A stretch of DNA of 64,000 nucleotides from an uncultured Peptococcaceae bacterium (GCA_937897635.1 CALCQI010000027.1:50316-114315), one strand, 5' to 3'. Counted from the first letter of the stretch, positions 7,175-50,094 are shown. Notes: generated by a model from the letters alone, not told the origin. Program-made: numbers and translations.

Positions 7175-7207
7175 TTAATAATTACGCCTCTTTTCTTGTT
7201 TACAGGT

Positions 7208-8384: not shown

Positions 8385-8411
8385 ATTTACCTAAATAGTT
8401 TTATAAAAACC

Positions 8412-8456
8412 CAAAAAGGCTTTATATGCTAAATACATATAAAGCCTTTTATTTTT
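8412..8456 (+). terminator. Rho-independent terminator of ndk
   Basis: AAAGGCTTTATATG...CATATAAAGCCTTT hairpin followed by TATTTTTC. Confidence 0.7.
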
Positions 8457-8494
8457 CAGCAAAAAATATTTTACTGAATATATATAACAATAAT

Positions 8495-14996: not shown

Positions 14997-15097
14997 AGCT
15001 ATTCTCCTATATCATGCTAGCAATGTTATATAAAAAAATATTATTTTTAATCAGCTATTGTAAAAAAGAGTGCATATTTTTATATACACTCTTTGAT

Positions 15098-16234: not shown

Positions 16235-16244
16235 TGTGTTCTCC

Positions 16245-17444: not shown

Positions 17445-17467
17445 TTTTATTCCTCCTTAAGTATCGG

Positions 17468-18322
17468 TTATTTATAAATCTGCAACAAGAGTTCCCGTAA
17501 AAACTTACAGGCAAGTGCTGTGGATGCCCCCGTTTGGTCATAAACAGGTGAAAGCTCGTTTACATCAAGTCCTACAATATTAAGCTTGGCCACCTTGCTT
17601 ACAGCCATAAGCAATTCTTGAAAAGTTACACCGCCTGCTTCGGGTGTTCCCGTTCCGGGAAATATTGAAGGATCAAGAACATCTAAATCTATAGTAAGAT
17701 AAACAGGTTTATCTTTAACTTTTTTTATTGCTTCATCAAGCATATCAAAATTAAATTTGCACATCTCTATATGCTCTTTGGCCCAGCGAAACTCTTCTCG
17801 TTCACCACTGCGAATACCAAATTGAAAAATGGCATTATCCCCTACAAGCTCCCAACATCTTCGTAATACAGTAGCATGAGAAAGCTTTTCACCCAAATAA
17901 TCATCACGCAGATCAGCATGAGCATCAAAATGGATTATCTGCAAACCTTGGTATTTATGTGCGGCTGCCCGTACTGCACCCAAAGTTACCAAATGCTCAC
18001 CACCTATCATCAGCGGTATTTTTTTATCTGCCAAAAATTGGGCAGCATACTCTTCTATATCTGCTAGGGCTCTGGCAGCATTACCGAAGGGAAGCTCCAA
18101 ATCCCCACCATCAAAAACCTTTATATCCTCCAAATCCCTATCCTGATATGGGCTATAGGTTTCAATGCCATAGCTTTCACTACGCATGGCGGCACTGGCA
18201 AACCTGGTACCGGGTCTATAGGAAGTTGTACAATCAAAAGGTGCTCCGAAAATAACTATTTTGCTTTCCTCGTAATCGTTATCACAGCCTATAAAGGTAT
18301 GGATATTTTTACTTATCATCAT
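17468..18322 (-). CDS. speB: Agmatinase
   Basis: 284 aa ureohydrolase; Mn-binding HFDAHADL, DLDVLDP, SGERE motifs. Confidence 0.9.
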   Translation of the reverse strand: MMISKNIHTFIGCDNDYEESKIVIFGAPFDCTTSYRPGTRFASAAMRSESYGIETYSPYQDRDLEDIKVFDGGDLELPFGNAARALADIEEYAAQFLADKKIPLMIGGEHLVTLGAVRAAAHKYQGLQIIHFDAHADLRDDYLGEKLSHATVLRRCWELVGDNAIFQFGIRSGEREEFRWAKEHIEMCKFNFDMLDEAIKKVKDKPVYLTIDLDVLDPSIFPGTGTPEAGGVTFQELLMAVSKVAKLNIVGLDVNELSPVYDQTGASTALACKFLRELLLQIYK

Positions 18323-19160
18323 AAAGCAGCTCCTTTACATAGCTTGGTAAAGCAAATGATCCCAAGTGAAGCTCTGTATTATAGTATTTGGTTTTTAAGC
18401 CCAAAGCATCCCATTTTTCAGGTTTGAAACCATGAAGTGGATGATATTTTTTGGAAGCAAAACCAAAAAGCCAATGCCCTGAAGGATAAGTTGGGATATG
18501 TGCCTGATAAACCTTGCTTATAGGAAATACCGAACTAATTTTGCGGTGCGCTTTTTGCATGGCAAGGGCATCTTCCTCATAATAGGGGCTTTCATGCTGG
18601 TTTACCAAAATACCGTCCTCGCTTAAAGCCTTAAAACAGTTACCGTAAAATTCCTTAGTAAAAAGACCTTCACCTGGGCCAAATGGATCGGTAGAATCCA
18701 CTATAATCAAATCATATTCATTTTGTTTGGTACGTACAAATTTCAGGCCATCCTCGAAGAATAAGTGCACTCTTTCATCTTCAAACTTACAAGCTGTTTG
18801 AGGCAAATACTTTTTACAAACTTCCACAACTTGCTCATCTATTTCCGCCATATCTATACGCTCTATGGTTTTATAAAGAGTAAGCTCACGCACTACACCG
18901 CCATCCCCTGCTCCTATAACCAGCACTTTTTTAATATTGGGGTTCACTGCCATAGGAACATGAGTAATCATATCATGGTAAATAAATTCATCCTTTTCGG
19001 TTACCATTAAAAAACCGTCCAAAACTAAAATGCGGCCGAATTCATAGGAATCGAAAACATCTATTCTTTGAAAATCGCTTTGCAGGCTTATAAGTTGCTT
19101 ATCCACCCTGATAGAAAATTTAACATTTTCTGTGTGTTTTTCCGTGTACCATAAATCCAT
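18309..19160 (-). CDS. speE: Spermidine synthase
   Basis: 283 aa; VLVIGAGDGGVVRE, IIVDSTDPFGPGEGLF signature. Confidence 0.9.
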   Translation of the reverse strand: MDLWYTEKHTENVKFSIRVDKQLISLQSDFQRIDVFDSYEFGRILVLDGFLMVTEKDEFIYHDMITHVPMAVNPNIKKVLVIGAGDGGVVRELTLYKTIERIDMAEIDEQVVEVCKKYLPQTACKFEDERVHLFFEDGLKFVRTKQNEYDLIIVDSTDPFGPGEGLFTKEFYGNCFKALSEDGILVNQHESPYYEEDALAMQKAHRKISSVFPISKVYQAHIPTYPSGHWLFGFASKKYHPLHGFKPEKWDALGLKTKYYNTELHLGSFALPSYVKELLYDDK

Positions 19161-20615
19161 TCAATCACCCTCCACCACATTAATGTTTTCAACTTTCATA
19201 TCCTTAGTTCCTGTTAAAGAACAGCCCTTAGCTTTAGCATAATTAATATAATCAATAATTTCCACAGTGATTTTTTCCCCCGGGGCCAAAATAGGTATAC
19301 CGGGAGGATAGCACATAATAAACTCACCGCAAATCATGCCGTTGCTTTGCATAATCGGAACGGCTTTTTTATTGCTGTAAAAAGCCTTTTGGGGCGCCAT
19401 AACAACTTTGGGGTTGATATATTCATGGTCGAACATACCTGTTTTATCTTTGGCGTACAAGCGTTTTATTTCCGAAAGTGCCGAAATGAGCCTTTCAATT
19501 TCCAAAGCCCTATCGCCTGCTGAGATTATAGCTAAAATATTGCCTATATCACCAAATTCTATTTGAATACCGTAATCATCACGCAAAATATCATAAACTT
19601 CTATGCCGGCAAGGCCTATATCCCTAGTATATATAGAAAGCTTGGTTAAATCAAAATCAAAAATCTCATCACCGTCTATCAATTCTTTGCCAAAAGCATA
19701 ATAACCGCCCAATTTATTAATTTCCGAGCGAGCGTATTCAGCAAATTCCACCGTTTTTTTGAACATTTCCTTACCGTTCAAGCTTAAGTTTTTTCTGGCA
19801 ATATCAAGCGAGGAAAGCAAAAGGTAGGAAGCACTTGTTGTTTGAGTAAGGTTAATAACCTGCCTTACATAGTCGGCATCTATATTTACACCGCAAAGCA
19901 AAAAAGAGCTTTGTGTAAGCGAACCGCCTGTTTTATGCATACTTAAGGCAGACATATCTGCTCCTACGCTCATAGCATTCTCAGGCATATCTTCACCAAA
20001 ATAAAAATGAGTACCATGCGCCTCATCCACCAACACAAGCATACCATAACGGTGGGCAATAGCAGTTATTTCCCTTAAATTTGAACAAATACCGTAATAA
20101 GTTGGGTTATTTATAAAAACAGCTTTAGCATCGGGATTTTCCTCTATAGTTTTTTTAACATCAAAAACAGACATCCCAAGCGGGATGCCTAATTTTTTAT
20201 TAATGCCGGGGTTAATATACACAGGCACAGCACCGCAAATAACCAACGCATTAATTGCACTGCGGTGCACGTTTCTGGGCATGATTATTTTATCCCCTGC
20301 CTTACATACAGCCATTATCATAGCCTGTACGGCAGCGGTAGTACCGTTCACCATGAAAAAAACATCATTGGCCCCAAAGGCTTCGGCAGCCAATTCCTGT
20401 GCATCTTGAATAACGGATATAGGGTGGCATAAATTATCCAGCGGCTTCATGGAATTCACATCCACTTTAAGACAGCTTTGCCCTAAAAAATCCGTAAGTT
20501 CCTTATTGCCCCTGCCGCCTTTATGTCCAGGTACATCAAAAGGCACAACCCTGTTTTTTCTATGTTTTTCTAATGCTTCGTAAATAGGTGCATTATGTTG
20601 TGAAAGATGTTTCAT
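19161..20615 (-). CDS. speA: Arginine decarboxylase (Orn/Lys/Arg decarboxylase family, fold type I)
   Basis: 484 aa; PGHKGG, SxHKTGGSLTQSS PLP-lysine block, like B. subtilis SpeA. Confidence 0.85.
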   Translation of the reverse strand: MKHLSQHNAPIYEALEKHRKNRVVPFDVPGHKGGRGNKELTDFLGQSCLKVDVNSMKPLDNLCHPISVIQDAQELAAEAFGANDVFFMVNGTTAAVQAMIMAVCKAGDKIIMPRNVHRSAINALVICGAVPVYINPGINKKLGIPLGMSVFDVKKTIEENPDAKAVFINNPTYYGICSNLREITAIAHRYGMLVLVDEAHGTHFYFGEDMPENAMSVGADMSALSMHKTGGSLTQSSFLLCGVNIDADYVRQVINLTQTTSASYLLLSSLDIARKNLSLNGKEMFKKTVEFAEYARSEINKLGGYYAFGKELIDGDEIFDFDLTKLSIYTRDIGLAGIEVYDILRDDYGIQIEFGDIGNILAIISAGDRALEIERLISALSEIKRLYAKDKTGMFDHEYINPKVVMAPQKAFYSNKKAVPIMQSNGMICGEFIMCYPPGIPILAPGEKITVEIIDYINYAKAKGCSLTGTKDMKVENINVVEGD

Positions 20616-20633
20616 TTTTAACCTCCTTCACAA

Positions 20634-21449
20634 TTAAAAAATATTAGCGCCGCTGAATATTTCTATCATTTCGCGCCTTAACCTATCGGTTATTTCCAGC
20701 CTTTGCTTGGGCGACAATTCATAAACATCTTTATTGAAAAGATAATTTTGCAGCTCAATATCCTTAATAAGCATTTTGGTATGGAAAATATTGGATTGAT
20801 AAACATTTACATCAATAGCATCGTATCTGTGCAAAGTTTTATCATCTATATAATCCTGAATAGATGCAATGTTATGGTCTATATAAAACTTTTTACCTTC
20901 AACATCCCTGGTAAAACCGCGAACACGATAATCTATGGTAATAATATCCGAATCGAAACTATCTATAAGATAATCCAACGCATTAAGCGGAGAAATTTTA
21001 CCGCAGGTAGAAACATCAATATCTACACGAAAAGTGGAAATAGCATTATCAGGATGATATTCAGGAAAAGTATGCACGGTAACATGGCTTTTATCTAAAT
21101 GCGCATGAATGGTTTCATGGTTTTTCATTAGCCTTTCGCCTTGATTACATGATTCATCGATAAAAGATGAATCCAAAGGTCTTTCCGCGATAAGAATATT
21201 TACTGAAGCACCCTGGGGATCATAATCCTGTTTGGATATATTAAGCACATGAGCGCCTATCATTTCCGTTACATCACATAGGATTTTAGTTAATCTTTCA
21301 GAATTATACTGCTCATCGATATAAGCTATATAATCCTTTTGTTCTCTCTCACTTTTTGCATAGCAAACATCATAGATGTTGAAGCTAAGTGTTTTTGTGA
21401 GGTTGTTAAAGCCATACAATGTCAGCTTTTTTTCCAACCCTAACATCAC
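20634..21449 (-). CDS. speD: S-adenosylmethionine decarboxylase proenzyme (E. coli SpeD-type)
   Basis: 271 aa aligning nearly end-to-end with E. coli SpeD ([53 protein letters not shown]). Confidence 0.9.
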
Positions 21450-29554: not shown

Positions 29555-29944
29555 ATGAAAAAACTTACTTTTACAATGGAAAATTATCTTGAAGCCATAT
29601 ATGAACTTTCTCAAGAAGGCAACGGTGTAAGGGTTTCAGATATTGCTGACCGCCTTGGCGTAACCAAAGCCAGCACCAACAGTGCTATGGCAACATTAGC
29701 TAAAAAAGGCTTAATCACAAATGAAAAGTACAAGGAAATATTTCTTACCCAAAAGGGTTTTGAGCTTGCCGAATTCACCTCCCACAAACACCATACAATA
29801 AGGGATTTTTTTATAAACATACTGCAAATCGACTCTTCTGTTGCGGATACTGATGCCTGTGCTATTGAGCATGTGATCAGCAATGCTTCTATTTTGGCAA
29901 TGCAAAATTTCATGCAAAATAAAAAGAATCAAGAGAGGAATTGA
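29555..29944 (+). CDS. DtxR/MntR-family metal-dependent transcriptional regulator (short form)
   Basis: 129 aa; N-terminal wHTH MENYLEAIYELSQEGNGVRVSDIADRLGVTKASTNSAMATLAKKGLI, metal-site His/Glu/Cys (HKHH, DACAIEH). Confidence 0.75.
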   Translation: MKKLTFTMENYLEAIYELSQEGNGVRVSDIADRLGVTKASTNSAMATLAKKGLITNEKYKEIFLTQKGFELAEFTSHKHHTIRDFFINILQIDSSVADTDACAIEHVISNASILAMQNFMQNKKNQERN

Positions 29945-30026: not shown

Positions 30027-31217
30027 TTGCATGAAAAATCTAATAACAATATACAACTTTGGACAAAAAATTTTATAATCATTACCCTTTTAAATTTCTT
30101 GATTTTTTTCAGTTTTCAAATGCTGCAGCCTACTTTGCCTATTTATGTAAAAGAACTGGGAGGCACTGATTCTGTAGTTGGTTTGGTAACGGGAATTTTT
30201 ACGGTATCTGCTTTAATTGCAAGGCCCTTTGCAGGCAAAACTCTTGATAAAATAGGCCGCAAACCTGTTTTTATAATAGGCCTTGCTATATTTGCCGCAT
30301 CTGTGCTTGCATACAGTTGGCTGCCTATTATAGGTCTAATCCTATTTTTTAGGTTGATTCATGGCTTTGGCTGGGGTATTTCTAATACCGCAGTTAATAC
30401 TATTGCCTCGGATAATATACCCAAAGCCCGTTTTGGTGAAGGTATGGGTTATTTCAGTTTGGCAAGCAGCCTGGCTATGGCTATTGCTCCTGCTGTTGGC
30501 TTATCCTATATTACAAAATACAGCTTTAGCAACTTGTTTTTAATAGCTTCAGCTTTGATTATTACAGTATTGCTTTTAGTTGCATTTTCCGAATATACTA
30601 AACCCGAAAAAACTTCAGAAGCTACCGCTAAAACTTCAACCAAAGACTCTTTATATGAAAAATCCTCTATTCGGCCATCTATTGTGATCTTTTTTGTTTG
30701 CACAACCTATGGTGCTGTGGTAAGTTTTATTTCTCTTTATGCTACGGAAAAAGGAATTGAGAATATTGGCCTTTTTTTTACGGTTTACGCAGTATCATTA
30801 TTGGTTTCACGCCCTGTTTTTGGACATATTAATGATCGTTTCGGCCCTGATTTTTCTGTGATACCGGGTTTGATAATGTTATTTATAGCTATGCTTTTAT
30901 TATGGCAGGCTTCTGTTCTTATAATGTTTTTATTGGTGGGCTGTATTTACGGCATAGGCTTTGGCGCAGTTCAGGCAACTATACAAACCATGGCTGTAGT
31001 TCATGTACCTACTCAAAGGCGGGGAGCAGCCAATGCCACATTTTTCACAGGCTTTGACAGCGGTATAGGATTTGGCTCAATAATTTTCGGCATGATTGCT
31101 TCTGCTTTAGGTTACAGCAATATGTATATGCTTGCCTCCGCAGCCATTGTTATAGCCTTTATTTTTTATGTGCTTTTGGCTAAAAAATCAAAATCCTTTA
31201 CAACGGATATCAAATAA
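30027..31217 (+). CDS. MFS transporter
   Basis: 396 aa, 12 TM pattern, motif A-like GKTLDKIGRKP; follows the DtxR-like gene. Confidence 0.8.
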   Translation: MHEKSNNNIQLWTKNFIIITLLNFLIFFSFQMLQPTLPIYVKELGGTDSVVGLVTGIFTVSALIARPFAGKTLDKIGRKPVFIIGLAIFAASVLAYSWLPIIGLILFFRLIHGFGWGISNTAVNTIASDNIPKARFGEGMGYFSLASSLAMAIAPAVGLSYITKYSFSNLFLIASALIITVLLLVAFSEYTKPEKTSEATAKTSTKDSLYEKSSIRPSIVIFFVCTTYGAVVSFISLYATEKGIENIGLFFTVYAVSLLVSRPVFGHINDRFGPDFSVIPGLIMLFIAMLLLWQASVLIMFLLVGCIYGIGFGAVQATIQTMAVVHVPTQRRGAANATFFTGFDSGIGFGSIIFGMIASALGYSNMYMLASAAIVIAFIFYVLLAKKSKSFTTDIK

Positions 31218-31235
31218 TCTTTTTATGTTTTTAAA

Positions 31236-31272
31236 TCAAAAAACCGCCATTTTTTCATGGCGGCTTTTTGAT
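31236..31272 (+). terminator. Rho-independent terminator of MFS gene
   Basis: AAAAAACCGCCATTTTTTCATGGCGGCTTTTTG. Confidence 0.7.
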
Positions 31273-31454
31273 ATATGAATAGTATTTATTATAATTCCAG
31301 AATATCTCCGATAGCTATATATTTTATTTTATCTCCCATTACTTTTTTAATTTTACAAAGGCAGCTAAACCCTTAAAATGACATGTATAGCACACAGCAC
31401 CGGTTTTAAGCATAAACTTACCTGTTTTGCTCAAAAATTTTGCGTCTTTAGTTT

Positions 31455-31607
31455 CACCTTTTTAGCGGCATTTTTAATAAATAGATCCTTTTTGCCCATA
31501 TCAAATAAAAGCTTATGGTTTTGGGTTTCAAGGTAAAGGCTTAAGCCATGCTCATAGCCTAATCTTGCAGAAACAGAAGTATTCTCTACAAGTGCCTTAA
31601 CTGTCAT
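31455..31607 (-). pseudogene. Remnant of an MBL-fold metallo-hydrolase gene (first ~45 codons only)
   Basis: Minus strand from ATG at 31607: MTVKALVENTSVSARLGYEHGLSLYLETQNHKLLFDMGKKDLFIKNAAKR* - matches the conserved N-terminus of MBL-fold proteins usually encoded beside the NifX/MinD-ferredoxin cluster, but stops before the HxHxDH motif. Confidence 0.45.
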
Positions 31608-31624
31608 GATTAACCCTCCGCTTT

Positions 31625-32482
31625 TTAAGGCAAAATCTCCAGTGCTTTTTCAAATAAGCTTTTAATGGCGCGTCCGGCTGCACAATCAACATCCACTACA
31701 CTTAAATTATGGTTTATTGCTATTACAGCTTTATTATCAAAGGGTATTTTACCTAAAAAAGGTATAGAGGAATCTTCACAAAAAGCTTCTATTTTATTTG
31801 AATTGGCTATATTGGTATCATATTTATTTATACAAACAGCAACTTTACTGTCAAACTGCTTGGCCGTTTTAATAATGCGTTCCATATCATTTATGCCCGA
31901 AAGTGAAGGTTCTGCCACTATCAAAACCATGTTTGCACCACTTAAAGAAGCAATAACAGGGCAACCTATACCGGGAGAACCATCTACTATTACTATATCT
32001 GTATCAACTTTATTGAGTAATAGTTGTTTTTTTACTTCACTTACCAATTTACCGGAATTGCCGCTCCCCATTTTAAGACAAGCCGTTGAAAAAATGCTTT
32101 CATCCTTATAAAGCATTAATTCACCTGCCACATTAGGTTTTAACGATATTGCAGAAACAGGGCATAAAGCCTCGCAAACTCCACAGCCCTCACAACTATA
32201 AGTATCCACCAGATAATTTTCTTTTAAGCTGATTGCCTCAAAGCGGCAATTTTGTCTGCATACATCACAACGCAAACATAAACCGGAATCTATTACAGCC
32301 TTAGGCATACCATAATACTCCGAACATAGCGGATTTGTATTTTTGTTCATCAGCAAATGTAGGTTAGGTGCATCAACATCACAGTCAGCATACATTTTAG
32401 CCTTGGCAAGCTTAATCAAAGCAGAGGCAATAGTTGTTTTACCTGTACCGCCTTTACCGCTTAGAATCAAAAGCTGCTTCAT
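31625..32482 (-). CDS. MinD/Mrp-like P-loop ATPase with inserted 2x[4Fe-4S] ferredoxin domain (CooC-like)
   Basis: Start chosen at MKQLLILSGKGGTGKTT (deviant Walker A); CLRCDVCRQNC and CEGCGVCEALCP clusters; ORF-track start 32557 adds 25 aa overlapping upstream gene. Confidence 0.8.
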   Translation of the reverse strand: MKQLLILSGKGGTGKTTIASALIKLAKAKMYADCDVDAPNLHLLMNKNTNPLCSEYYGMPKAVIDSGLCLRCDVCRQNCRFEAISLKENYLVDTYSCEGCGVCEALCPVSAISLKPNVAGELMLYKDESIFSTACLKMGSGNSGKLVSEVKKQLLLNKVDTDIVIVDGSPGIGCPVIASLSGANMVLIVAEPSLSGINDMERIIKTAKQFDSKVAVCINKYDTNIANSNKIEAFCEDSSIPFLGKIPFDNKAVIAINHNLSVVDVDCAAGRAIKSLFEKALEILP

Positions 32483-33332
32483 TATGTACCTCCTCAGCAA
32501 TTTTTTGCCATAAGGCAGAAAATAATTGAGCATATTCCATATTTTCTCTTGACACAATCAAAGCGTTTGAATTCAATTCACCAAGCTTTTTATCAAAAGG
32601 GATTTTAGCCAAAATTCTGATCTTTTTTGCTTTACAAAACTCTTCCGAGGGATTAACAGCCTCAATACATTTGTTCAAGACAACTCCATGCGGTTTCTTG
32701 AATAAACTTATCAATTCATAAACAAGCTTTAGATTATGCATACCAAACAATGTCGGCTCTGCTACTAATAAGCAGTAATCGGCATCCTTAATGCTTTCCA
32801 TAACAATACAGGCACTGCCCGGTGGGCAATCAATAAAAATATTTTCATCCATATCTTGAGCCATGTGCAAAAGCTTATTGATGATAGGAATACCGGAAGA
32901 TTCACCTATTTTTAAAATACCGCTCATAACGGTTATATCTTCCGAAACACCTTTTTGCACTGACCCTATTATTCTGTCTTTTTCAGTCAAAGCTTTTTCA
33001 GGGCAAAAAAGAACGCAACCGCCGCAGGAATGGCAAATTTCATCAAACAACATCCATTTACCCTGAATATAGGCCAGCGCATTGAATTTACAAAATTCCA
33101 CACATTTACGGCAGCCTGTACACCTTGCTGGATCAACAAAAGGAACTTTTACAGTTACATTTTCAGTTTGTAAATTTTGAGGCTTAAAAAAAAGATGGCC
33201 GTTTGGTTCCTCAACATCACAATCAATATAAACAGAATTTTGTGTAACAGAGGCCAAATTTACTGACAAAAAAGTTTTACCCGTACCACCTTTACCGCTA
33301 AGTACGGCTATTTTGATTTTTTTAGTTGCCAT
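32454..33332 (-). CDS. Second MinD/Mrp-like ATPase with 2x[4Fe-4S] ferredoxin insert
   Basis: 292 aa; KIAVLSGKGGTGKTF, CTGCRKCVEFC, CHSCGGCVLFCP. Confidence 0.8.
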   Translation of the reverse strand: MATKKIKIAVLSGKGGTGKTFLSVNLASVTQNSVYIDCDVEEPNGHLFFKPQNLQTENVTVKVPFVDPARCTGCRKCVEFCKFNALAYIQGKWMLFDEICHSCGGCVLFCPEKALTEKDRIIGSVQKGVSEDITVMSGILKIGESSGIPIINKLLHMAQDMDENIFIDCPPGSACIVMESIKDADYCLLVAEPTLFGMHNLKLVYELISLFKKPHGVVLNKCIEAVNPSEEFCKAKKIRILAKIPFDKKLGELNSNALIVSRENMEYAQLFSALWQKIAEEVHNEAAFDSKR

Positions 33333-33684
33333 GATGAAATCCAGGATGCACCTCCTGAAGCAATTCCAGTTTGCCTTCTGAAAAAGCCTTTAGATTATCC
33401 TCTACAGAATCATTGATAGTTTTATAAAGCTTAACTTTTGCCGTATTGAATATTTCTGCTGCATTTTCGCCACAACGTGGGGTGAGCAAAACATCCACTT
33501 TATTATCAACTATGAATTGCGCAGCTTTTACCCCAGCCCCTCCACGGCTTTCCGCAGCTGTATTTTCCAAAAAATTATACTCCTTTTTAGCATCATCAAA
33601 TACTAAAAAATAAGGTGTACGACCAAAAGAAATACATATTTTGGTACTGCTGGATTTTTCTTCTACAGGTATGGCAATTTTCAT
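33322..33684 (-). CDS. NifB/NifX/NafY-family dinitrogenase FeMo-cofactor-binding-like protein
   Basis: Start at MKIAIPV with AAGGGGG SD; GAGVKAAQFI, VDVLLTPRCGENA motifs; the ORF-track N-terminal 15 aa are not supported by an RBS. Confidence 0.8.
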   Translation of the reverse strand: MKIAIPVEEKSSSTKICISFGRTPYFLVFDDAKKEYNFLENTAAESRGGAGVKAAQFIVDNKVDVLLTPRCGENAAEIFNTAKVKLYKTINDSVEDNLKAFSEGKLELLQEVHPGFHHGN

Positions 33685-33878
33685 AACATAACCCCCTTGA
33701 TTATATTTTATATCATAAACCATCAACATGAATTATTTTCAATAAAGGTAAAAGGGTCAACCCTGTTACTTTTATTGGCCTTTACCATTCCCCTGTAAAG
33801 CCAATTCTTTACAGCACCAAACAGCAAAGTTCAAGCCAACTACTTTTATTAAAAGTATTGTGCATAACTGTAAGCCTT

Positions 33879-34106
33879 TTAAGCCTTGCCACCAAAACCT
33901 CTTTTTGCTCTACCAATAAATTTAAAGGCTTTGTCTGTGCTGGAGTCAGTAACCGCATTTCTACCACCTGATCTTCTGCAGCTAAACCCGGCACCAAAAC
34001 CAAGGCCTTTACCATCTCTACGAGAAGCTCCGCTTTTGCAGTTTCCAAGGCCTCTACCCGTCTTAGATCCTTGTCCAGTTGGACCAGTTCCATCTCTACC
34101 CGGCAT
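33879..34106 (-). CDS. DUF5320-family small Gly/Arg-rich protein
   Basis: Start at MPGRDGTGPTGQG (signature MPxxDGTGP of DUF5320) with AAGGAGGTG SD 7 nt upstream; first gene of cluster. Confidence 0.65.
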   Translation of the reverse strand: MPGRDGTGPTGQGSKTGRGLGNCKSGASRRDGKGLGFGAGFSCRRSGGRNAVTDSSTDKAFKFIGRAKRGFGGKA

Positions 34107-34123
34107 TTCTAACACCTCCTTAT

Positions 34124-34190
34124 TATTGACATATGTTCTTTTCAATTACTATTATAATACATTATGAACATATGTCAATAACTTGTTTAT
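34124..34190. promoter_or_regulatory. Promoter of DUF5320 operon bracketed by a 16-bp perfect inverted repeat (candidate operator)
   Basis: TTATTGACATATGTTC ... GAACATATGTCAATAA, arms separated by a 27-bp spacer; on the minus strand the upstream arm supplies TTGACA, 16-17 bp later TATAAT; downstream arm overlaps the expected +1. Confidence 0.55.
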
Positions 34191-34440
34191 ATTCTATCTT
34201 AAAATTATAAAAACCAAAAGCTTTTATACTAAAGCTTTTGGTTTGTTTTTATATAACCACTTAACAATAAATTGATGTAAAGTTTATTAATGTATCAACT
34301 GCTTATATAAAGTACTTTTTGTTTACTGAATAAACACTTTTCTGTTTTACCCTAAGTTTTTACGCGTTTTTTATTTTTATATCCGCAGCTATCTAAAAAT
34401 CTTTCTTAGCACATATGCCCTGAAAAAAATATTTTCTTCG

Positions 34441-34510
34441 CCCATAATAAAAAGTGCTATTAAAGCTATAGCCTATTTATTTAATATCACTTCTTTTTTA
34501 TTCATATGCC
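34441..34510 (-). pseudogene. Truncated duplicate of the gerAB 5' end
   Basis: ~85% identical over ~85 bp to 35865..35950; minus-strand translation MNKKEVILNK* (gerAB begins MNKKEVISNKQ). Confidence 0.6.
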
Positions 34511-34520
34511 CCCATCCAAA

Positions 34521-34730
34521 TTATTTTTTTACAAAATCCCCTAGTATACTTTCAATAACTTTAATTGGCTGAGGCAACTGTATACCGGAAAGCAGCAAAA
34601 TACTTATAACAAAAGCAAATAATATAGTTACAGAGTATATCCATGTTTCTTTCTTTTTTTTGTTTTTATATAAAATATACAGCTCAGGTAAAGCAACTAT
34701 TAAATATATTAAAATTATTAAAATATACAT
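34521..34730 (-). CDS. Germinant-receptor D-subunit-like small membrane protein
   Basis: 69 aa, two TM helices (ILIILIYLIVALPELYILY / IYSVTILFAFVISILLLSGI); immediately downstream of gerAB. Confidence 0.6.
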   Translation of the reverse strand: MYILIILIYLIVALPELYILYKNKKKKETWIYSVTILFAFVISILLLSGIQLPQPIKVIESILGDFVKK

Positions 34731-34800
34731 ATTTTGTTCCCCTATTTTAATTAGATTTACACTTATAGTTTTCTGAAATTCCTATATTCGTTTTATATAT

Positions 34801-41933: not shown

Positions 41934-42734
41934 TCATTTCAACCGGTCTAAAGCTTTTAAAATCCCATAGATGATTGCCTGTGGTCTAGGTGGGCAGCCC
42001 GGCACATAAACATCAACGGGCACAATATTATCGATACCGTTACCCGTAGCATAGGTATCCTTAAAAATCCCTCCGCTGCAAGCACAGGCACCTACAGCAA
42101 CCACGAGCTTTGGATCAGGAGCGGCATTATAGGTTTTTACTAACGCAAGCTGCATATTTCTTGTAGCGGTACCTGTAACAAGGAGCATATCGGCATGCCT
42201 TGGCGAAGCCACAAAGTTTATGCCCAGCCTTTCAATATCATTTACAGGATTATTCAAACCGTTTATTTCATAATCACAGCCATTACAGGAGCCTGCATCC
42301 ACTTCCCTAATTTGTAAGCTTCTGCCAAACAGCTTTTTAATATTTGTTTTTAATTCATTACAAATAACTTCATAGTCTTTGTTAGGAATATCTTTTTCTT
42401 CTATTAACGATGGCTTAATTCTAAGCTTGCTTTTATCCTTTTCAGCAAGCTCAAATTCATGTGTCATTTTTGCTGCCCCCAAGGAACATACTTCTTCACA
42501 TAAGGTACAGAATATGCACTCATCATAATTTATACCTATATTACTTAAGGTTTTATCCAGTACAATTGCCTGGGAAGGGCAGCGTGAAACACATTCCCCA
42601 CACCTATTGCATTTACTTAAATCTATTTCAGGCCTGCCAATAAACAGTCTTGAATCCAGCGGCTTATTAGGGTACTTACTGGTAAGCCTTGGATATTGGA
42701 TCATCTTTTTAACAATGTTTAACATATTCACCAT
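41934..42734 (-). CDS. Fused 2x[4Fe-4S] ferredoxin (HyfH/NuoI-like) + hydrogenase-type small subunit (HyfI/NuoB-like)
   Basis: 266 aa; CNRCGECVSRCP and CIFCTLCEEVC, then GSCNGCDYE...GACACSGG...GCPP (NuoB/EchC proximal-cluster cysteines). Confidence 0.8.
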   Translation of the reverse strand: MVNMLNIVKKMIQYPRLTSKYPNKPLDSRLFIGRPEIDLSKCNRCGECVSRCPSQAIVLDKTLSNIGINYDECIFCTLCEEVCSLGAAKMTHEFELAEKDKSKLRIKPSLIEEKDIPNKDYEVICNELKTNIKKLFGRSLQIREVDAGSCNGCDYEINGLNNPVNDIERLGINFVASPRHADMLLVTGTATRNMQLALVKTYNAAPDPKLVVAVGACACSGGIFKDTYATGNGIDNIVPVDVYVPGCPPRPQAIIYGILKALDRLK

Positions 42735-42767
42735 CCCAATTTATCCTAAAATCAAAACAACTCCACT

Positions 42768-44378
42768 TTATAAATCGTTTCCCGCATATGATAAATTAAA
42801 ACTCTTATTAATAAGTGGGAAATCAGGCACGATATTTCCTTTTACGGCATGACACAAGGCAGGCCAGTTGCAAAAGGAAGGAGTCCTTACTTTATATCTA
42901 AAAATCGTATTGTTTTCCCCCGTCATTATCCAATGGATATTTTCACCTCTCGGAGCTTCCGTTAAGCCAAAGGCAAAACGATAAGGCTCAACAGAACCTA
43001 CAGGCTCCAACACTTTCCCTCCGGGCATATTTTCAATAGCCCGTATCATAAGGCTGATCGATTCAAAACACTCTTCTATTTTTGTATTCATTCTACAATT
43101 TATATCGCCGTTATTATGTTTTGGTATGTTAAATTTCAGCTTATCATAAGCTTCATAAGGAAAGCTTTTTCTAACATCGAAGCATAATCCCGAAGCACGG
43201 CCGCCCGGACCAACTGCATTCAAATCTGTGGCGATTTTGGTTTTAAGTATGCCGGTGTTTTCAACCCTATCAATAAACATGGTATTGGCTTTGATAATTT
43301 TAAGCGTATCATAAAGCTCTTTTTTTATTTTTTCCAAACCTGCTATAACTTTTACTTCTTTACCTGCAACAAAATCCTGCCTTACTCCACCAATTTTATT
43401 AACACTTCTTAAAAAACGCATACCGCAAAGCTCATCGGCAACCGCATACGCCCAGCCTCTCATCATCCTAAACTGGAATGTGCCAAAACCATAGGCAGAA
43501 TCAAGGCATAACCCGCCTAAATCTCCAAGATGGCTGGTAAGCCTTTCAAGCTCTGCAAAAACTACCCTAGTATATTGGGCTCTAGAAGGTATTTTTACCT
43601 TGGCTATCTTTTCAATGGCCTCACAATAGGCAAGTGAATTGGCAAAGGTTTCATCCCCTGATATACGTTCCGAAACATACAAGCACTTTTCAATGCTCTG
43701 CCCTTCGCACATTTTTTCTATACCCTTATGAACATAATAAAGCTGTGCTTCCAAATTTATAACAGGTTCACCCGCAACACTGAACCGAAAATGACCGGGT
43801 TCTATGATACCTGCGTGTACAGGACCTACAGGAATTTCATAAACTCCCTCACCTGTTACCTTTTGGAAAGGGGTTACCTCTTTGGCAAAATCGGGCTTGT
43901 GCTTTACATCAAATTCCTTGCGTAAAGGAAATTCCGCCTTAGGCCAGTTACTGTGGAAAACAAGCCTTTTGGGGTTAGGATGCCCCTTTGGAAAAATCCC
44001 AAATAAATCATTGATTTCTCTTTCATATAAATCAGCAGCAGGTATATTAGGGGTAATTGAAAAAATTTCCATTTGATTTGGATCAATCAAGGTTTTAATA
44101 ATTAGAAGCAAGGCTTGCTTCCTGTCCGCAAATACATAATATACAGCATATTTGCTGCAAATACTCTTTTCATCATTAGCAAACATTGAAACAAGAGGGT
44201 AACCCTGCGTGGTATTGATATAAGTGCAAATCTCCAATATTTTAGCAGGGTTTACCTTCATATATAGTTCATTCGTATTTTCGGTACTGCTACTATAGAT
44301 ATTTTCAGCAAAAGCTTCTGTAAGTTTATTTTTCAACTCGGTTAAAATCACCATTTTGCTCTCCATTCTATGCTCCAA
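42768..44378 (-). CDS. HyfG/HycE-like 'large subunit' (NuoC-NuoD fusion) LACKING the [NiFe]-binding cysteines
   Basis: 536 aa; NuoD-like core PVGPVHAGIIEPGHFRFSV...; where [NiFe] hydrogenases have RxCGxCxxxH the sequence is ERISGDETFAN, and the C-terminus ends KSFNLSYAGNDL instead of DPCxSCxxR. Confidence 0.8.
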   Translation of the reverse strand: MEHRMESKMVILTELKNKLTEAFAENIYSSSTENTNELYMKVNPAKILEICTYINTTQGYPLVSMFANDEKSICSKYAVYYVFADRKQALLLIIKTLIDPNQMEIFSITPNIPAADLYEREINDLFGIFPKGHPNPKRLVFHSNWPKAEFPLRKEFDVKHKPDFAKEVTPFQKVTGEGVYEIPVGPVHAGIIEPGHFRFSVAGEPVINLEAQLYYVHKGIEKMCEGQSIEKCLYVSERISGDETFANSLAYCEAIEKIAKVKIPSRAQYTRVVFAELERLTSHLGDLGGLCLDSAYGFGTFQFRMMRGWAYAVADELCGMRFLRSVNKIGGVRQDFVAGKEVKVIAGLEKIKKELYDTLKIIKANTMFIDRVENTGILKTKIATDLNAVGPGGRASGLCFDVRKSFPYEAYDKLKFNIPKHNNGDINCRMNTKIEECFESISLMIRAIENMPGGKVLEPVGSVEPYRFAFGLTEAPRGENIHWIMTGENNTIFRYKVRTPSFCNWPALCHAVKGNIVPDFPLINKSFNLSYAGNDL

Positions 44379-45840
44379 TGATAATATTTTGCGCTTGAGT
44401 GATAAGGTTTTTTAGCTCATCCGGAATAAACAAGCCACTTATGCTTATTACCAAGAACAGCACTACAATTACAATGGTTCCGGCCTTATTAGTTTCACCC
44501 GGCTGCAATTCCTCTTCTTGATTATTGCCATAGAACATTTTAAATAAAGTAACCGCAATACCCGCAAATATAATTGCCAAAAGCAGAGCTAAAGCCCCCC
44601 CCACCACAAACTTTTTAGCGGTGAATAAAGATACCATTATGCTAAGTTCACTGGCAAAAACACTGAAAGGCGGTGTACCTGCTATAGCAAATAAACCAAG
44701 TAAAAACACTGTTCCTGAAATCGGCAGCAGTTTAAGTATAGCTTTGATTTCGGAAATCTGTTTTGTATTATATTTTTGCAATATATTACCTGAAGCTAAG
44801 AATAACATAGCCTTAGTAAGTGAATGGTTAATCATATGAAGCAAAGCTCCAAAAACAGACAGGGGTGTAAAAACACCCATAGCAACAGCAATAATACCCA
44901 TATGTTCTATGCTTGAATAAGCCAATAACCTTTTATAGTCCTTTTGCGTAAGTATGAAGATAGCCGCGGTAAGTATAGATAAAATCCCCAAAGCTATCAA
45001 CAGCCTGCCTGTATAAATACTGCTGCCAAGATTGCGGTTTACAACAGCTACCGTACGAATTATCCCATACATTGCGCTATTCAGCAAAACCCCCGAAAGC
45101 AATGCACTGATTGGCGAAGGTGCTTGGCTATGAGCATCAGGCAGCCATGTATGCATGGGAGCGAGACCCGCCTTAGTACCAAAACCTATTAAAATAAAGA
45201 TAAATGCCAGCTTAACTATAGGGCTTTTTAAAGATTCCGCATTATTATACAATGCTATCCAATCTAAAAATTGGTTATTCTCCAATACCCCTATGGATGA
45301 AAGATGCAAAAATATAATACCCAGCAAGGCAATCGCGATACCTACCGAACAAATGAGCACATATTTCCAAGCTGCCTCAAGCGAATATTTATCATTGTAA
45401 AAGCCAACCAAAAATGCTGAGGCTAAAGTGGTTGCTTCAATGGCTATCCACATAATACCCATATTTTTTACAGTTAAAGCAAGTATCATTGTAAACATGA
45501 AAGCATACATCAAAATATAATAAAGCCTTAACCTTCCTCTATCTATTTTTCCATGCTTTATTTCCGTTTCCATATATGAAACAGAATAGATACTTGCCAT
45601 AAAACCAATAAGAATAACTATATCAAGAACTATAATGCTTAAGGCATCAATATAAAATATACCCCCCAAAGCAGTATGATGTGCACTGCCTAAAACCATA
45701 ACATCTGTAGTAAGATAAACCGCAATTATGATCAAAAGGCTTGAAGTCAATAAGCTTATAGTATGTTGGATTATACTGTTTTTAAAAAGCATGAACAGTA
45801 AAACAGCAATAACGGGTAAGGCAATCAAGAAAAATCCCAT
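44368..45840 (-). CDS. HyfF/NuoN/MrpD-like antiporter-type membrane subunit
   Basis: 490 aa, 14 TM, NADH-quinone oxidoreductase chain L/M/N proton-pumping domain motifs (WLPDAHSQAPSPISALL). Confidence 0.8.
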   Translation of the reverse strand: MGFFLIALPVIAVLLFMLFKNSIIQHTISLLTSSLLIIIAVYLTTDVMVLGSAHHTALGGIFYIDALSIIVLDIVILIGFMASIYSVSYMETEIKHGKIDRGRLRLYYILMYAFMFTMILALTVKNMGIMWIAIEATTLASAFLVGFYNDKYSLEAAWKYVLICSVGIAIALLGIIFLHLSSIGVLENNQFLDWIALYNNAESLKSPIVKLAFIFILIGFGTKAGLAPMHTWLPDAHSQAPSPISALLSGVLLNSAMYGIIRTVAVVNRNLGSSIYTGRLLIALGILSILTAAIFILTQKDYKRLLAYSSIEHMGIIAVAMGVFTPLSVFGALLHMINHSLTKAMLFLASGNILQKYNTKQISEIKAILKLLPISGTVFLLGLFAIAGTPPFSVFASELSIMVSLFTAKKFVVGGALALLLAIIFAGIAVTLFKMFYGNNQEEELQPGETNKAGTIVIVVLFLVISISGLFIPDELKNLITQAQNIIIGA

Positions 45841-45849
45841 CGTTTTATC

Positions 45850-46524
45850 TTATCCTTTCAGGTTGCTTAGTTTATCAATATTAATAGATTCAAACTTCTC
45901 GTTTATTTTAAACACCATAATACCCAATACCATAACGGCTGTGATCATATCAACAAAAATACCTATATCTACAATAAAAGGCATACCTTGGGTAGAAAAC
46001 ATTGCTGTAACAAAAAGCCCGTTTTCAATAACCAAAAAGCCTATTATCTGGCCAATAGCCTTTCTTCTGCTTATCATAAAAAACAGCCCTATCAAAATAA
46101 CCGAAACCGAATTAACAACCTGAACATTGATCATACCATCATTGATACCTTCAATAGTTGCAAGAGAAAAATAAGTAAAAACAACCAAAGTACAGCATAC
46201 CAGAATAAGAATGGGAATATTTAGAATAAAATCTTTTTCAACCTTATATTCCGCTTTAGCATAAGCTTTACTTAAAATATTAGGTATCCAAATAACTTTT
46301 AGGATTATAATGAGCAAACAAACCACCAAAACATCAAAACGCCCCTCTTCAGTTATAGTTTTTATGCCCATAATACCCGCGGCAAGAGCTATCAAAAACG
46401 ATTGGAACCTAAAGGTTTTAATATAGGATTTGCTCATTTTATTTGCCATCAAAATAAATGACGATAGTAAGATCAAAATTGATAATGAATCAAAAAAACT
46501 AGACATAGCGGCCTCCCAAAACAA
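45850..46524 (-). CDS. HyfE-like small membrane subunit
   Basis: 224 aa, 7 TM, position and size match E. coli HyfE. Confidence 0.65.
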   Translation of the reverse strand: MFWEAAMSSFFDSLSILILLSSFILMANKMSKSYIKTFRFQSFLIALAAGIMGIKTITEEGRFDVLVVCLLIIILKVIWIPNILSKAYAKAEYKVEKDFILNIPILILVCCTLVVFTYFSLATIEGINDGMINVQVVNSVSVILIGLFFMISRRKAIGQIIGFLVIENGLFVTAMFSTQGMPFIVDIGIFVDMITAVMVLGIMVFKINEKFESINIDKLSNLKG

Positions 46525-47455
46525 AGTACTGTAAAAATCCTAAAAAAGATAATATAAATGACAATGCTGCCAAATTGGGTATACTGAACAGCTTGAACTT
46601 TACTGTATTAATCTCTGCTATAGCAATGATTATGGCAATACCTATCACTTTGACCAAATAAATAATGACTGAAAGAATAACCGCGCCAATACCTGTTATA
46701 GCTATAAGCTGATCATGCGGCAGTAAAAGGTTTACCAATAAGGTTATAAAGACAAGCTGTTTTATAGCCGCACCATATTCCATTAGAGCAAGGTGTCTTC
46801 CCGAATACTCTAAAATCATTGCTTCATGCACCATAGTCAATTCAAGATGCGTATTTGGATCATCCACAGGTATCCTGGAGGTTTCAGCAATAATTATAGT
46901 CATCAAAGCCATAAAGATCATTATATAAACAGGATGCAGCAAAGGTACACCTATATTTTGCATTGTATTCATCATCTCAAGCAAGGACGTAGATTGGGAA
47001 ATAAGACCTACCGTAAACAATGAAACCAAAATAGAAGGCTCAATCAATGAGGAAATCATGCCCTCTCTGCTGCTACCCATCCCACCAAAAGTACTTGCAG
47101 TATCCAAAGCGGCTATCATCGTAAAAAACCTGCCCAACGCCAGTATAGAAACAAGCATGATGATATCTCCGGGAATTTGCTCAGGCACAATCATGGTAGA
47201 TACAGGCACAAGCAACGCCGCTGCAACAGCGGTTGTAAAAACAATATATGGCGTTACCTTAAACACCCAAGAAGATACATCTGAAACCACAGAGCTTTTT
47301 TTGAAGAGTTTGTATAAATTAAAATACATCTGAAAAATAGGCGCACCCTTCCTTTTCTGCGAAAAAGCCTTGGTTTTATTAGTGATGCCGTTTAGTAAAG
47401 GCGCTGTCAGCAGAATGACCAATAACTGTATTACTATATAAAGTAAATTTTTCAT
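46499..47455 (-). CDS. HyfC/HycD/NuoH-like membrane subunit
   Basis: 318 aa, 8 TM, respiratory-chain NADH dehydrogenase subunit 1 family. Confidence 0.8.
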   Translation of the reverse strand: MKNLLYIVIQLLVILLTAPLLNGITNKTKAFSQKRKGAPIFQMYFNLYKLFKKSSVVSDVSSWVFKVTPYIVFTTAVAAALLVPVSTMIVPEQIPGDIIMLVSILALGRFFTMIAALDTASTFGGMGSSREGMISSLIEPSILVSLFTVGLISQSTSLLEMMNTMQNIGVPLLHPVYIMIFMALMTIIIAETSRIPVDDPNTHLELTMVHEAMILEYSGRHLALMEYGAAIKQLVFITLLVNLLLPHDQLIAITGIGAVILSVIIYLVKVIGIAIIIAIAEINTVKFKLFSIPNLAALSFILSFLGFLQYFVLGGRYV

Positions 47456-47476
47456 ATCTGTTTCTCCTCAAACTTT

Positions 47477-49561: not shown

Positions 49562-50094
49562 AAATTTTGCCAGATTTGTTCATAATGCATATTCACATTC
49601 TCTGATTGATAAATAATGATACTGGATAAAGTACCATGAATCATTGCAAAATACGAAATAGCAACATCATCCACATCCTGCTTACGAATAATTTCCGCCT
49701 CCATATTTGAAATAATTATTTCTTTAACTATTCTAAAACACTGCTTAGATAGAGTATCGATTTTTGCAATGAGCGTTTCTTCAAATGCTTTGGGCGGAAA
49801 AAGTAAAAGCCTTTTCCAAAAGTAAAGCTTGGTTTTGGATTTATCATAATAATTCAAGATCATAAAAAAAATAGTTTTCAAGTCTTTAGAGCCTTCATTT
49901 ATTTCAAAAAAATACTCATTAATCTCTTGATCAATGACTGCATATAACAAATCTTCTTTACTTGTAAAATGAGCATATATAGAGGCCTTTTGAATACCAA
50001 CTTCACTTGCCACTTCATTTAAGGAAAATTCATTGCCTTTATCAGCAAATAATCTAAACGCTGAATCCATCAGCTTTTTTTTAGTTTCCATCAA
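49543..50094 (-). CDS. TetR-family transcriptional regulator, first gene of and overlapping the hyf-like operon
   Basis: 183 aa; HTH LMDSAFRLFADKGNEFSLNEVASEVGIQKASIYAHFTSKEDLL; stop overlaps next gene by 19 nt. Confidence 0.8.
   Translation of the reverse strand: MMETKKKLMDSAFRLFADKGNEFSLNEVASEVGIQKASIYAHFTSKEDLLYAVIDQEINEYFFEINEGSKDLKTIFFMILNYYDKSKTKLYFWKRLLLFPPKAFEETLIAKIDTLSKQCFRIVKEIIISNMEAEIIRKQDVDDVAISYFAMIHGTLSSIIIYQSENVNMHYEQIWQNFWCGIN

Follow-up and report, generated by a model that had tools for sequence, protein, structure and literature searches.

In Desulfovibrio vulgaris, the genes of the orange protein (ORP) system encode the "orange protein" Orp8, a member of PF02579, and two paralogous ATPases, Orp3 and Orp4, both of which bear two ferredoxin motifs of the [4Fe-4S] type (PMC6345978). 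His-tagged Orp3 "systematically" copurifies with Orp4 and Orp8, and holo-MrpORP (Orp9) hands iron-sulfur (Fe-S) clusters to the apo Orp3-Orp4-Orp8 subcomplex (PMC6345978). A role in cell division has been proposed for this system from morphological defects (PMC8359166). Another member of the PF02579 family, MTH1175, was placed by Vaccaro et al. in the clade of IssA, a protein of thioferrate Fe-S storage, and the group formed by MTH1175 and TM1290 lies outside the NifX, NafY, and NifB clades (PMC5524996). The subject of the present analysis is a gene cluster within a 64,000-nucleotide stretch of DNA from an uncultured Peptococcaceae bacterium (GCA_937897635.1 CALCQI010000027.1:50316-114315), hereafter the window. 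The cluster comprises a DUF5320 gene, a NifX-like gene, genes for two MinD/NifH-class ATPases with inserted ferredoxin domains (ATPase 1 and ATPase 2, the M1 and M2 orthologues), and the remains of a metallo-β-lactamase (MBL)-fold gene. The best explanation overall, which we regard as probable, is that the locus is a reduced ORP-type operon whose intact core serves ATP- and electron-coupled Fe-S handling. Taken by itself, the statement that this is a reduced module of the ORP type whose three-gene core still functions is highly probable; the specific coupling of Fe-S handling to ATP and electrons, drawn by analogy, is proposed only tentatively.

Families were assigned by comparison with Pfam, NCBIfam, and PDB profiles. 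All features of the cluster lie on the minus strand, and the family assignments of the four genes, which had been proposed together with their shared direction in an earlier reading of this DNA (the sequence-only reading), were borne out by Pfam and motif checks. The DUF5320 gene is followed, after a spacer of 194 nucleotides (nt), by the three closely packed core genes, in which the NifX-like and M1 reading frames overlap by 11 nt and the M1 and M2 frames by 29 nt. The core is open without interruption over 2.1 kb and keeps every family-invariant residue; furthermore, ribosome-binding sites and overlapping start and stop codons are preserved in the locus. A scan of positions 31000..34800 against Rfam (E<=1) returned subthreshold chance matches only, with no riboswitch or leader.

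The two ATPases share the deviant Walker A motif SGKGGTGKT and two CxxCxxCxxxC motifs and are about 30% identical to each other. The Walker A motif, the eight ferredoxin cysteines, and C38, C169, C175, C187, and C233 of M1 are invariant in 47 of 47 homologues; for M2, the same holds in 81 of 81 homologues for the Walker A motif, the eight ferredoxin cysteines, and C34, C174, C217, and C235. In the PDB, the P-loop halves are nearest to MinD (1hyq, 1.7e-9; 4v03, 5e-8), and the NCBIfam models minD_arch and minD_bact are matched at 48 to 56 bits, far under the family cutoffs of >200. Fusions were sought by comparing M2 with 1.84 billion representative proteins (50%-identity clusters), which gave 4,926 matches with a limit of E<=1e-3 and 531 clusters with one of E<=1e-30. 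Double-ATPase fusions of about 600 amino acids (aa) make up 32 of the best 150 representative clusters (examples among P0122-P0169), and in every one of the 32, the N-terminal half is nearer to M1 and the C-terminal half nearer to M2, which is the order of the genes. Fusion that always follows gene order supports a heterodimer and is strong evidence, at the level of sequence, that M1 and M2 would pair in this way. NifX-like domains are also found fused to the ATPases, both to M2 (M2-NifX2 proteins P0157 and P0199, ∼395 aa) and to the pair (M1-M2-NifX2 protein P0140, 710 aa). With the M1-M2 fusions, these lend indirect support to a predicted physical complex of the Orp3-Orp4-Orp8 kind. In addition, P0257 (409 aa) is a MinD-ferredoxin protein with a DUF5320-like MPNRDATGP...GRGQG tail rich in Gly, Arg, and Gln. 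No NifX::DUF5320 fusion was seen among the best 120 DUF5320 matches, which were all stand-alone proteins of 88 to 105 aa and carry little weight on this point.

The setting of the core was compared across 80 related loci, from many Bacillota and two Chloroflexota, that were obtained by scanning genome collections with M2 (63 to 69% protein identity) and over which nine families were mapped. The canonical order is promoter–[DUF5320]–DUF134–[IscU/NifU-like]–NifX-like–M1–M2–[MBL]–[Mrp/NBP35]–second NifX-like. NifX-M1-M2 is present, in constant order, wherever a locus extends that far, and the NifX-like protein of the window is 51 to 64% identical to the product of the same-position gene in almost every related locus reaching it. 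DUF134 occurs in nearly all loci, the second NifX-like gene in ∼60, Mrp in ∼45, DUF5320 in ∼45, MBL in 32, and the IscU-like gene in ∼20; the IscU/NifU-type scaffold gene inside these clusters matches TIGR03419 at 150 bits. In relative L012, the Mrp gene covers positions 1-246 of the NCBIfam MrpORP model NF041136 (350 bits) and the next gene, which is NifX-like, positions 265-365 (118 bits), so that the pair together exceeds the 450-bit MrpORP cutoff. The two genes thus constitute a split MrpORP, and a split MrpORP in the relatives argues that the cluster is the ORP counterpart. By domain architecture and cluster context, the intact NifX-M1-M2 core is the counterpart of the Orp8-Orp3-Orp4 subcomplex. 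The proposal of the sequence-only reading that the module handles Fe-S or another metallocluster agrees with the Desulfovibrio system, except that the module is one already recognized, as ORP type, through the split MrpORP of its relatives. That reading had also named membership in a characterized pathway of close relatives as evidence that would count against it; what was found is a partly characterized system in a distant relative, which answers that description only by half.

Within this range of architectures, the window is among the most reduced versions: it holds the promoter, a damaged DUF5320 gene, the core, and a damaged MBL gene. The view that the module is being remodeled was therefore right and even understated the change, given that DUF5320 is frameshifted and that no DUF134, IscU-like, Mrp/NBP35, or second NifX-like gene is found in the locus or anywhere else in the 64 kb. 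Core-only versions (P-[D5]-X-M1-M2) occur elsewhere too (e.g., L024 and L075). That accessories are broken or absent here while the core is intact suggests that the three genes would form a self-sufficient unit.

The opposite extreme of the architecture is a nine-gene cluster that is 87 to 98% identical in DNA sequence among Oscillibacter, Christensenellaceae, Eubacterium aggregans, Clostridium tyrobutyricum, Faecalicatena, and a Flexilinea (Chloroflexota) metagenome-assembled genome (L012 3600-8950 compared with L029, L045, L034, L015, L011, L007, L028/L033, and L069). In L008, a putative serine recombinase-like open reading frame (ORF), read from the translation, lies at 1860..3593 directly upstream of the cluster. 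Such identity among distant anaerobes, together with the recombinase-like neighbor, points to recent horizontal transfer, and the nine-gene version looks like one that moved on a mobile element.

The first of the two lesions in the window affects the MBL gene, which was compared with 27 full-length relatives (273 to 282 aa) that start 26 to 46 nt after M2. Its N terminus is encoded by a 58-aa ORF (31607..31431) that has its own ribosome-binding site and stays open to a stop at 31431. The "N-terminal stub" of the sequence-only reading is thus present, but it is not all that is left: residues ∼218-274 also survive, in two other frames. The junction of the first and second pieces lies at ∼31460, where the gene has lost ∼168 codons (residues ∼50-217) and with them the HxHxDH metal site; the lesion is accordingly an internal deletion with at least one further frameshift. 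Even the spliced remnant gives no match in Pfam. An MBL homologue stands directly downstream of M2 in 31 of 73 assessable relatives and is intact in 27 of them. The MBL gene does not, as had been supposed, normally complete the module; DUF134, Mrp/NBP35, and the second NifX-like gene are all commoner. The gene is broken in four other lineages, by independent events. Only the last 43 to 67 MBL residues are left in L013 and L046, the gene is frameshifted in L059, and L070 carries an internal deletion (1-44 + 192-251 + 253-273 retained) much like that of the window.

The second lesion is in DUF5320, the first gene of the cluster. Its open frame matches PF17253 over model positions 1-57 of 99 only, and the product (pI 11.5, 27% Gly, 2 Cys) keeps the Gly/Arg-rich cationic N-terminal part of the family, in which the first 60 to 70 residues show a median pI of 11.6, a Gly content of ∼32%, and, in most members, two Cys. 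The C-terminal coiled-coil helix of the family is missing from it. Homologues in related loci are mostly 80 to 105 aa long and typically end in ...KTQKELLxEQKxxLxxRLxxIxKQLExL; a tblastn search with 43 of them mapped LLxEQKxxLxxRL to 33919..33872 in a different frame, and the helix of the window reads LLVEQKEVLVARLKRL in the +1 frame. With the frame corrected in a chimera, the Pfam match rose from 42.8 to 57.5 bits and extended over model positions 1-92/99. Programmed frameshifting was considered and rejected: the shift needed is +1, and the T_TTA_AAT heptamer near the site would fit only the downstream frame, which is the wrong one. Recoding also runs counter to the sequence beyond the helix, which has diverged and lost its stop, and the shift was read as a mutation. 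The DUF5320 gene also carries a frameshift in two strains of C. tyrobutyricum and is cut short in L065 and L080. In both C. tyrobutyricum strains (L028 612-794 and L033), the frameshift lies in an A-rich run where the Gly/Arg-rich part meets the coiled coil (…SKTKKSCSMNRKPCCKID…), and it is independent of the lesion in the window.

Between DUF5320 and the core, a possible trace of DUF134 was found when 70 DUF134 proteins were compared by tblastn with the 311-nt stretch concerned: the match is weak (best E ∼0.002) and has two in-frame stops. Together with the position of DUF134 in the relatives, this stop-containing match suggests, as something short of proof, that one deletion may have run from the end of DUF5320 through DUF134.

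Neither lesion is an artifact. At least 10 contigs of independent origin (ENA, two NCBI metagenome-assembled genomes, JGI, and Logan) encode an M2 protein identical to that of the window; metagenome-assembled genomes with the locus include GCA_036797205.1 and GCA_028706095.1. Five other assemblies (from ENA, NCBI metagenome-assembled genomes, and JGI) span the lesions over 4.9 to 5.5 aligned kb, with 0 to 21 single-nucleotide polymorphisms (SNPs) relative to the window and no indels. All five have the same 58-aa MBL stub and the same DUF5320 frame, and two of them are 0.4% diverged yet structurally identical. A sequencing or assembly artifact, which the sequence-only reading had named as a possible refutation in the case of the MBL stub, is rejected on these grounds. 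Between the 0.4%-diverged strains, the core has 6 to 7 synonymous SNPs and 1 nonsynonymous SNP, those of the NifX-like gene being synonymous only, whereas the DUF5320 and MBL remnants have 0 synonymous and 3 nonsynonymous SNPs (for DUF5320, 0 and 2, respectively). The contrast (Fisher p of about 0.02-0.03, with small numbers) goes the way that upkeep of the core, but not of the remnants, would predict.

Upstream of DUF5320, the promoter agrees with the sigma70 consensus: on the minus strand, TTGACA (34178..34173) and TATAAT (34156..34151) are separated by a spacer of 16 nt. In ∼50 related loci, the cluster is preceded by TTATTGACATATGyC, 10 to 12 nt, TATAAT, 10 to 13 nt, and rGCATATGyCA, an element in which the palindrome TGrCATATGyCA occurs twice, once over the -35 hexamer and once just past the -10 hexamer (e.g., L008 3963-4010, L012 ∼3625, and L013 3983-4032); both copies are retained in the window. 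The usual first gene behind this promoter is DUF5320. The palindromes are presumably the operator of a dedicated regulator, for which DUF134, with its sigma-70 region-4-like helix-turn-helix and Cys/His-rich tail, would be the obvious candidate. The literature searched gave no description of a dual-palindrome operator, the operator sequences matching unrelated papers only, and nothing relevant on DUF5320, DUF134, or COG1149. In Desulfosporosinus, the dual-palindrome promoter also stands before a gene for an HdrD-like (CCG-domain, Fe-S) protein (L072 9010..8960, minus strand, genes 8752..7114, minus strand; also L025 4012, minus strand), which hints at a small regulon broader than the ORP-type cluster.

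A search for sigma54-like elements gave no match upstream of DUF5320, and the 58 matches in the whole window compare with 52.9 expected by chance. One of them, TGGCTTGAACTTTGC at 33824..33838 (minus strand), has sigma54 GG/GC elements at the correct spacing with 2 mismatches and sits between DUF5320 and the NifX-like gene, ∼140 nt before the latter; as matches with 2 mismatches occur at chance frequency, it was set aside as probably meaningless. No enhancer-binding protein was found among the flanking spore-germination (Ger) operon, the MFS transporter, and the DtxR-like regulator. The Ger genes upstream are closed by a terminator hairpin at 34244..34211, and the cluster shares its own bidirectional terminator, which on the minus strand reads GCCGCCATGAAAAAATGGCGGTTTTTTGA, with the convergent MFS transporter gene.

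The best PDB matches of the NifX-like protein are MTH1175 (1eo1, 2.6e-19) and TM1290 (1rdu, 3.1e-15), with the Desulfovibrio gigas ORP (2wfb) at 7.8e-6. Through MTH1175 and its published placement, the protein of the window would be a member of the IssA/MTH1175 clade.

From these elements, a mechanism can be sketched. A sigma70 promoter guarded by the two predicted palindromic operators would drive three translationally coupled genes. The NifX/MTH1175-type protein would hold an inorganic metal-sulfur species, and the M1/M2 heterodimer, whose subunits have further invariant cysteines in the predicted switch regions, would couple ATP binding and hydrolysis to Fe-S chemistry, with electrons passing through the four [4Fe-4S] clusters of the M1 and M2 ferredoxin domains. 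In this way, the Fe-S species on the NifX-like carrier could be assembled, reduced, mobilized, or released and then passed to client proteins. The clusters of the complex itself would come, in this species, from the housekeeping Fe-S machinery and not from a dedicated MrpORP. Several points weigh against this account of the locus. The equivalence with Orp3 and Orp4 (DVU2103/DVU2104) rests on domain architecture and cluster context, and the cluster of the window has neither the MrpORP nor the sigma54/OrpR control known from Desulfovibrio. What the ORP of D. gigas binds is a Mo-Cu-S cluster and no Fe-S cluster, and the role that has been proposed for ORP in Desulfovibrio is one in cell division. 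The electron-transfer and ATP-coupling mechanism is drawn from family resemblance, with an alignment to NifH that is reliable for Walker A and switch I only, and the SNP argument rests on 10 to 11 sites.

A competing use of the same ATPase evidence is cell division or positioning, in which MinD/ParA-like ATPases, held on the membrane by C-terminal amphipathic helices, would place the septum or a complex and the Fe-S clusters would act as redox sensors. MinD is indeed the nearest structural relative of the P-loop halves; in D. vulgaris, moreover, lost orp expression leads to morphological defects, MrpORP is polar, and Orp3 and Orp4 have predicted MinD-like amphipathic C termini (PMC8359166, PMC6345978). 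This explanation is nevertheless decidedly improbable, because the Desulfovibrio phenotype may affect division only indirectly and because a scan of both flanks of the locus, covering 20 ORFs of >=180 aa, showed no minC- or minE-like partner. NifX-like cluster carriers are what invariably accompanies the ATPases, IscU-like and Mrp/NBP35 proteins of Fe-S scaffold or carrier type often do so, and some of the ATPases are fused to NifX-like domains. The 16 ferredoxin cysteines and ∼9 further invariant cysteines likewise point to metal chemistry. If metal chemistry is accepted, the metal could still be another one: the NifX-like protein might bind a [S2MoS2CuS2MoS2]-type cluster that the ATPases assemble or dispose of, in Mo/W-Cu-S cluster handling or thiomolybdate detoxification. 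The ORP of D. gigas is a detectable homologue, and Orp8 homologues carry a noncovalent Mo-Cu-S cluster (PMC6345978). The protein of the window is, however, far nearer to MTH1175 and TM1290 than to that ORP, no molybdate/tungstate or copper genes adjoin the cluster, and the clusters of relatives contain Fe-S scaffold and carrier genes, which leaves this alternative improbable. Trafficking of a nitrogenase cofactor (FeMo-co or NifB-co), to which the family name of PF02579 as the NifX/NafY/NifB C-terminal domain family would lead, is extremely unlikely. The earlier statement that there is no nitrogenase here holds within the window, where tblastn found no NifH in the 64 kb and Pfam found no nif genes among the 20 flanking ORFs scanned; the protein groups with MTH1175 and TM1290 and not with the NifX, NafY, or NifB clades. 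Many of the taxa that bear the cluster are not known as nitrogen fixers.

A different kind of objection is that the locus has no function left, being a dying remnant that is unused as a whole and whose core mutation has merely not yet disabled. Both genes that flank the core are pseudogenes, the usual regulator and Fe-S donor genes are absent, and decay of MBL and DUF5320 recurs in relatives, all of which would fit. Yet the 2.1-kb open frame has lost no family-invariant residue, substitutions between strains 0.4% apart are mostly synonymous in the core (6-7 to 1) and wholly nonsynonymous in the remnants (0 to 3), a perfect promoter is kept along with ribosome-binding sites and overlapping start and stop codons, and other lineages, such as L024 and L075, carry only P-[D5]-X-M1-M2. 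A dying remnant is accordingly given a low probability. The decay of the accessories is gene loss of an ordinary kind, and it affects a system that is known though little understood. A more far-reaching version of Fe-S handling by the core is conceivable as well, although on balance unlikely: the core may be the engine of an unrecognized, anaerobe-wide Fe-S system distinct from ISC, SUF, and NIF, in which a NifH-like heterodimer with ferredoxin wiring would reductively mobilize or assemble polymeric or cluster Fe-S on an IssA-clade carrier, DUF5320 would be a detachable cationic tail, DUF134 would be a cluster-sensing repressor acting on TGrCATATGyCA, and the gene-loss variants would define the minimal set.

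Coordinates of the cluster features and of neighboring genes in the window, with the evidence for each
Feature	Position	Strand	Evidence
sigma70-type promoter with two operator-like sites	34126..34178	-	12/12 consensus positions
Operator-like site 1, TTGACATATGTTC	34178..34166	-	overlaps -35 hexamer
Operator-like site 2, GAACATATGTCAA	34138..34126	-	directly 3' of -10 hexamer
Ribosome-binding site AGGAGG	34120..34115	-	upstream of DUF5320
DUF5320 gene, cut off by frameshift, 75 aa, MPGRDGTGP...	33879..34106	-	PF17253 E=2e-10
DUF5320 C-terminal helix remnant, +1 frame (..TPAQTKPLNLLVEQKEVLVARLKRL..)	33872..33949	-	tblastn + frame-corrected chimera
Possible DUF134 3' remnant, KIIHVDGL*YKI*SRGLCYENCHTCRR vs KVLLIEGGEYRL-CEGLGNGCGRGCHRHRR	33659..33739	-	weak
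NifX-like protein (PF02579), 120 aa, intact	33322..33684	-	Pfam E=2.6e-20
M1, MinD/NifH-class ATPase with inserted 2x[4Fe-4S] ferredoxin domain, 292 aa, intact	32454..33332	-	Pfam CbiA + Fer4 families
M2, MinD/NifH-class ATPase with inserted 2x[4Fe-4S] ferredoxin domain, 285 aa, intact	31625..32482	-	Pfam CbiA + Fer4 families
MBL piece 1, codons 1-49, original frame	31461..31607	-	53-65% identity to residues 1-49 of relatives' full-length MBL proteins
MBL piece 2, residues ∼218-255, second frame, HCTG -> HFKG	31345..31458	-	tblastn E down to 9e-8
MBL piece 3, residues ∼255-274, VMGDKIKYIAIGDILEL*, third frame	31292..31351	-	L014 50% identical; L039, L031 agree
Bidirectional intrinsic terminator, CCGCCAT-loop-ATGGCGG, T-runs on both strands	31244..31263	.	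terminator scan
MFS transporter	30027..31217	+	
DtxR/MntR-type metal-dependent repressor	29555..29944	+	
Surface protein, 1685 aa	24106..29163	-	
Polyamine operon and UvdE-DUF1722 gene	13710..21449	-	
Group-4 membrane-bound [NiFe] hydrogenase cluster	41934..49561	-	
TetR-family gene	49543..50094		

Among the other genes in the window, the DtxR/MntR-type metal-dependent repressor lies directly upstream of the MFS transporter gene; the pair is convergent with the cluster and is kept in all assemblies of the species that extend that far. A link of the pair to the cluster through metal homeostasis is possible. Downstream of the pair, a surface protein combines SLH domains with Ig-like, YDG, and Fn3-associated repeats; in assembly L084, the first call at its position is only 316 aa long, and the contig ends with a further call of 37 aa. 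The polyamine operon encodes arginine/ornithine decarboxylases, an agmatinase-type arginase-family protein, spermidine synthase, AdoMet decarboxylase, and a saccharopine-dehydrogenase-like protein; next comes a gene for a UvdE endonuclease with DUF1722 as a fusion partner. Finally, 8 kb from the cluster, with unrelated genes between, lies an Fe-S-rich, Ech/Hyc-like hydrogenase cluster that specifies a small subunit with a Fer4 domain, a fused 30-kDa/49-kDa large subunit, and NuoH/L/M-like membrane subunits, with the TetR-family gene beside it.

The locus adds no new kind of system; its value is that of a natural deletion experiment. The ATPase family is large (531 clusters at 50% identity, E<=1e-30) and spread across anaerobic Bacillota, with further members in Desulfovibrio (PMC6345978), and Fe-S storage and routing in strict anaerobes are poorly understood. 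At this locus, the regulator candidate, MrpORP as the dedicated Fe-S donor, MBL, and the DUF5320 helix can be missing while the core stays constrained, matching Orp3-Orp4-Orp8. Comparative handles are provided by the obligatory M1-M2 pairing that the fusions support, the split MrpORP of Firmicutes, the dual-palindrome operator, and the seemingly mobile nine-gene version.

Several families of known proteins bear on the parts of the cluster. Full-length MBL proteins of the relatives are like 2p4z from Thermoanaerobacter (E=3e-41) and TM1679 (3h3e, E=4e-25), uncharacterized proteins from structural genomics, compared with which the MBL gene of the window has lost the metal-binding core. The cell-division ATPase MinD matches the ATPases in its P-loop class, but here a redox domain (2x[4Fe-4S]) is inserted. 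NifH, BchL, CooC, and Mrp/NBP35 are dimeric SIMIBI-class ATPases in which nucleotide switching drives the transfer of electrons or the insertion of metals or clusters. M1 and M2 share with them the deviant Walker A motif and the dimer implied by the M1-M2 fusions. Their switch I, DCDV[DE]xPN, resembles GCDPKAD of NifH, a likeness backed in that part by the profile alignment, and an invariant Cys seven residues after the Walker B Asp lies, at the level of the motif, about where Cys132, the cluster ligand of NifH, is found. When M2, the only one of the two so aligned, was compared with Azotobacter vinelandii NifH, Walker A and switch I were credible and switch II was misaligned. Unlike the NifH class, the P-loop half is nearest to MinD, the 2x[4Fe-4S] ferredoxin domain is inserted after switch I, and the dimer would, judging from the fusions, be an obligate heterodimer of two paralogues.

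The likeness to IssA of Pyrococcus furiosus, which has a globular PF02579/IPR003731 domain of the same clade as MTH1175 (PMC5524996), extends to a role in anaerobic Fe-S supply and to an associated disordered segment that is cationic, Gly-rich, and contains aromatic residues. In IssA, this cationic tail is on the same polypeptide, whereas the protein of the window (120 aa, ending ...EVHPGFHHGN) is free of such a tail, and the IssA-like chemistry (pI ∼11.6, ∼32% Gly) sits on another protein, DUF5320, of which this genome has a damaged version. This composition suggests, as a hypothesis only, that DUF5320 might provide in trans the kind of tail that IssA carries. IssA itself has no described ATPase partners.

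The closest comparison is with the Desulfovibrio ORP genes. The window differs from them in having no MrpORP, in having a sigma70 promoter with palindromes in place of sigma54, OrpR, and IHF, in being one operon as opposed to two divergent ones, and in a NifX-like protein that is nearer to MTH1175 than to the Mo-Cu-binding ORP; in addition, the Bacillota version adds DUF5320, DUF134, IscU-like, and MBL genes. What the two have in common is a pair of paralogous MinD-type ATPases with two [4Fe-4S] motifs adjoining a single-domain PF02579 protein, a MrpORP (Orp9) that relatives of the locus encode as two adjacent genes, and a distribution limited to anaerobes.

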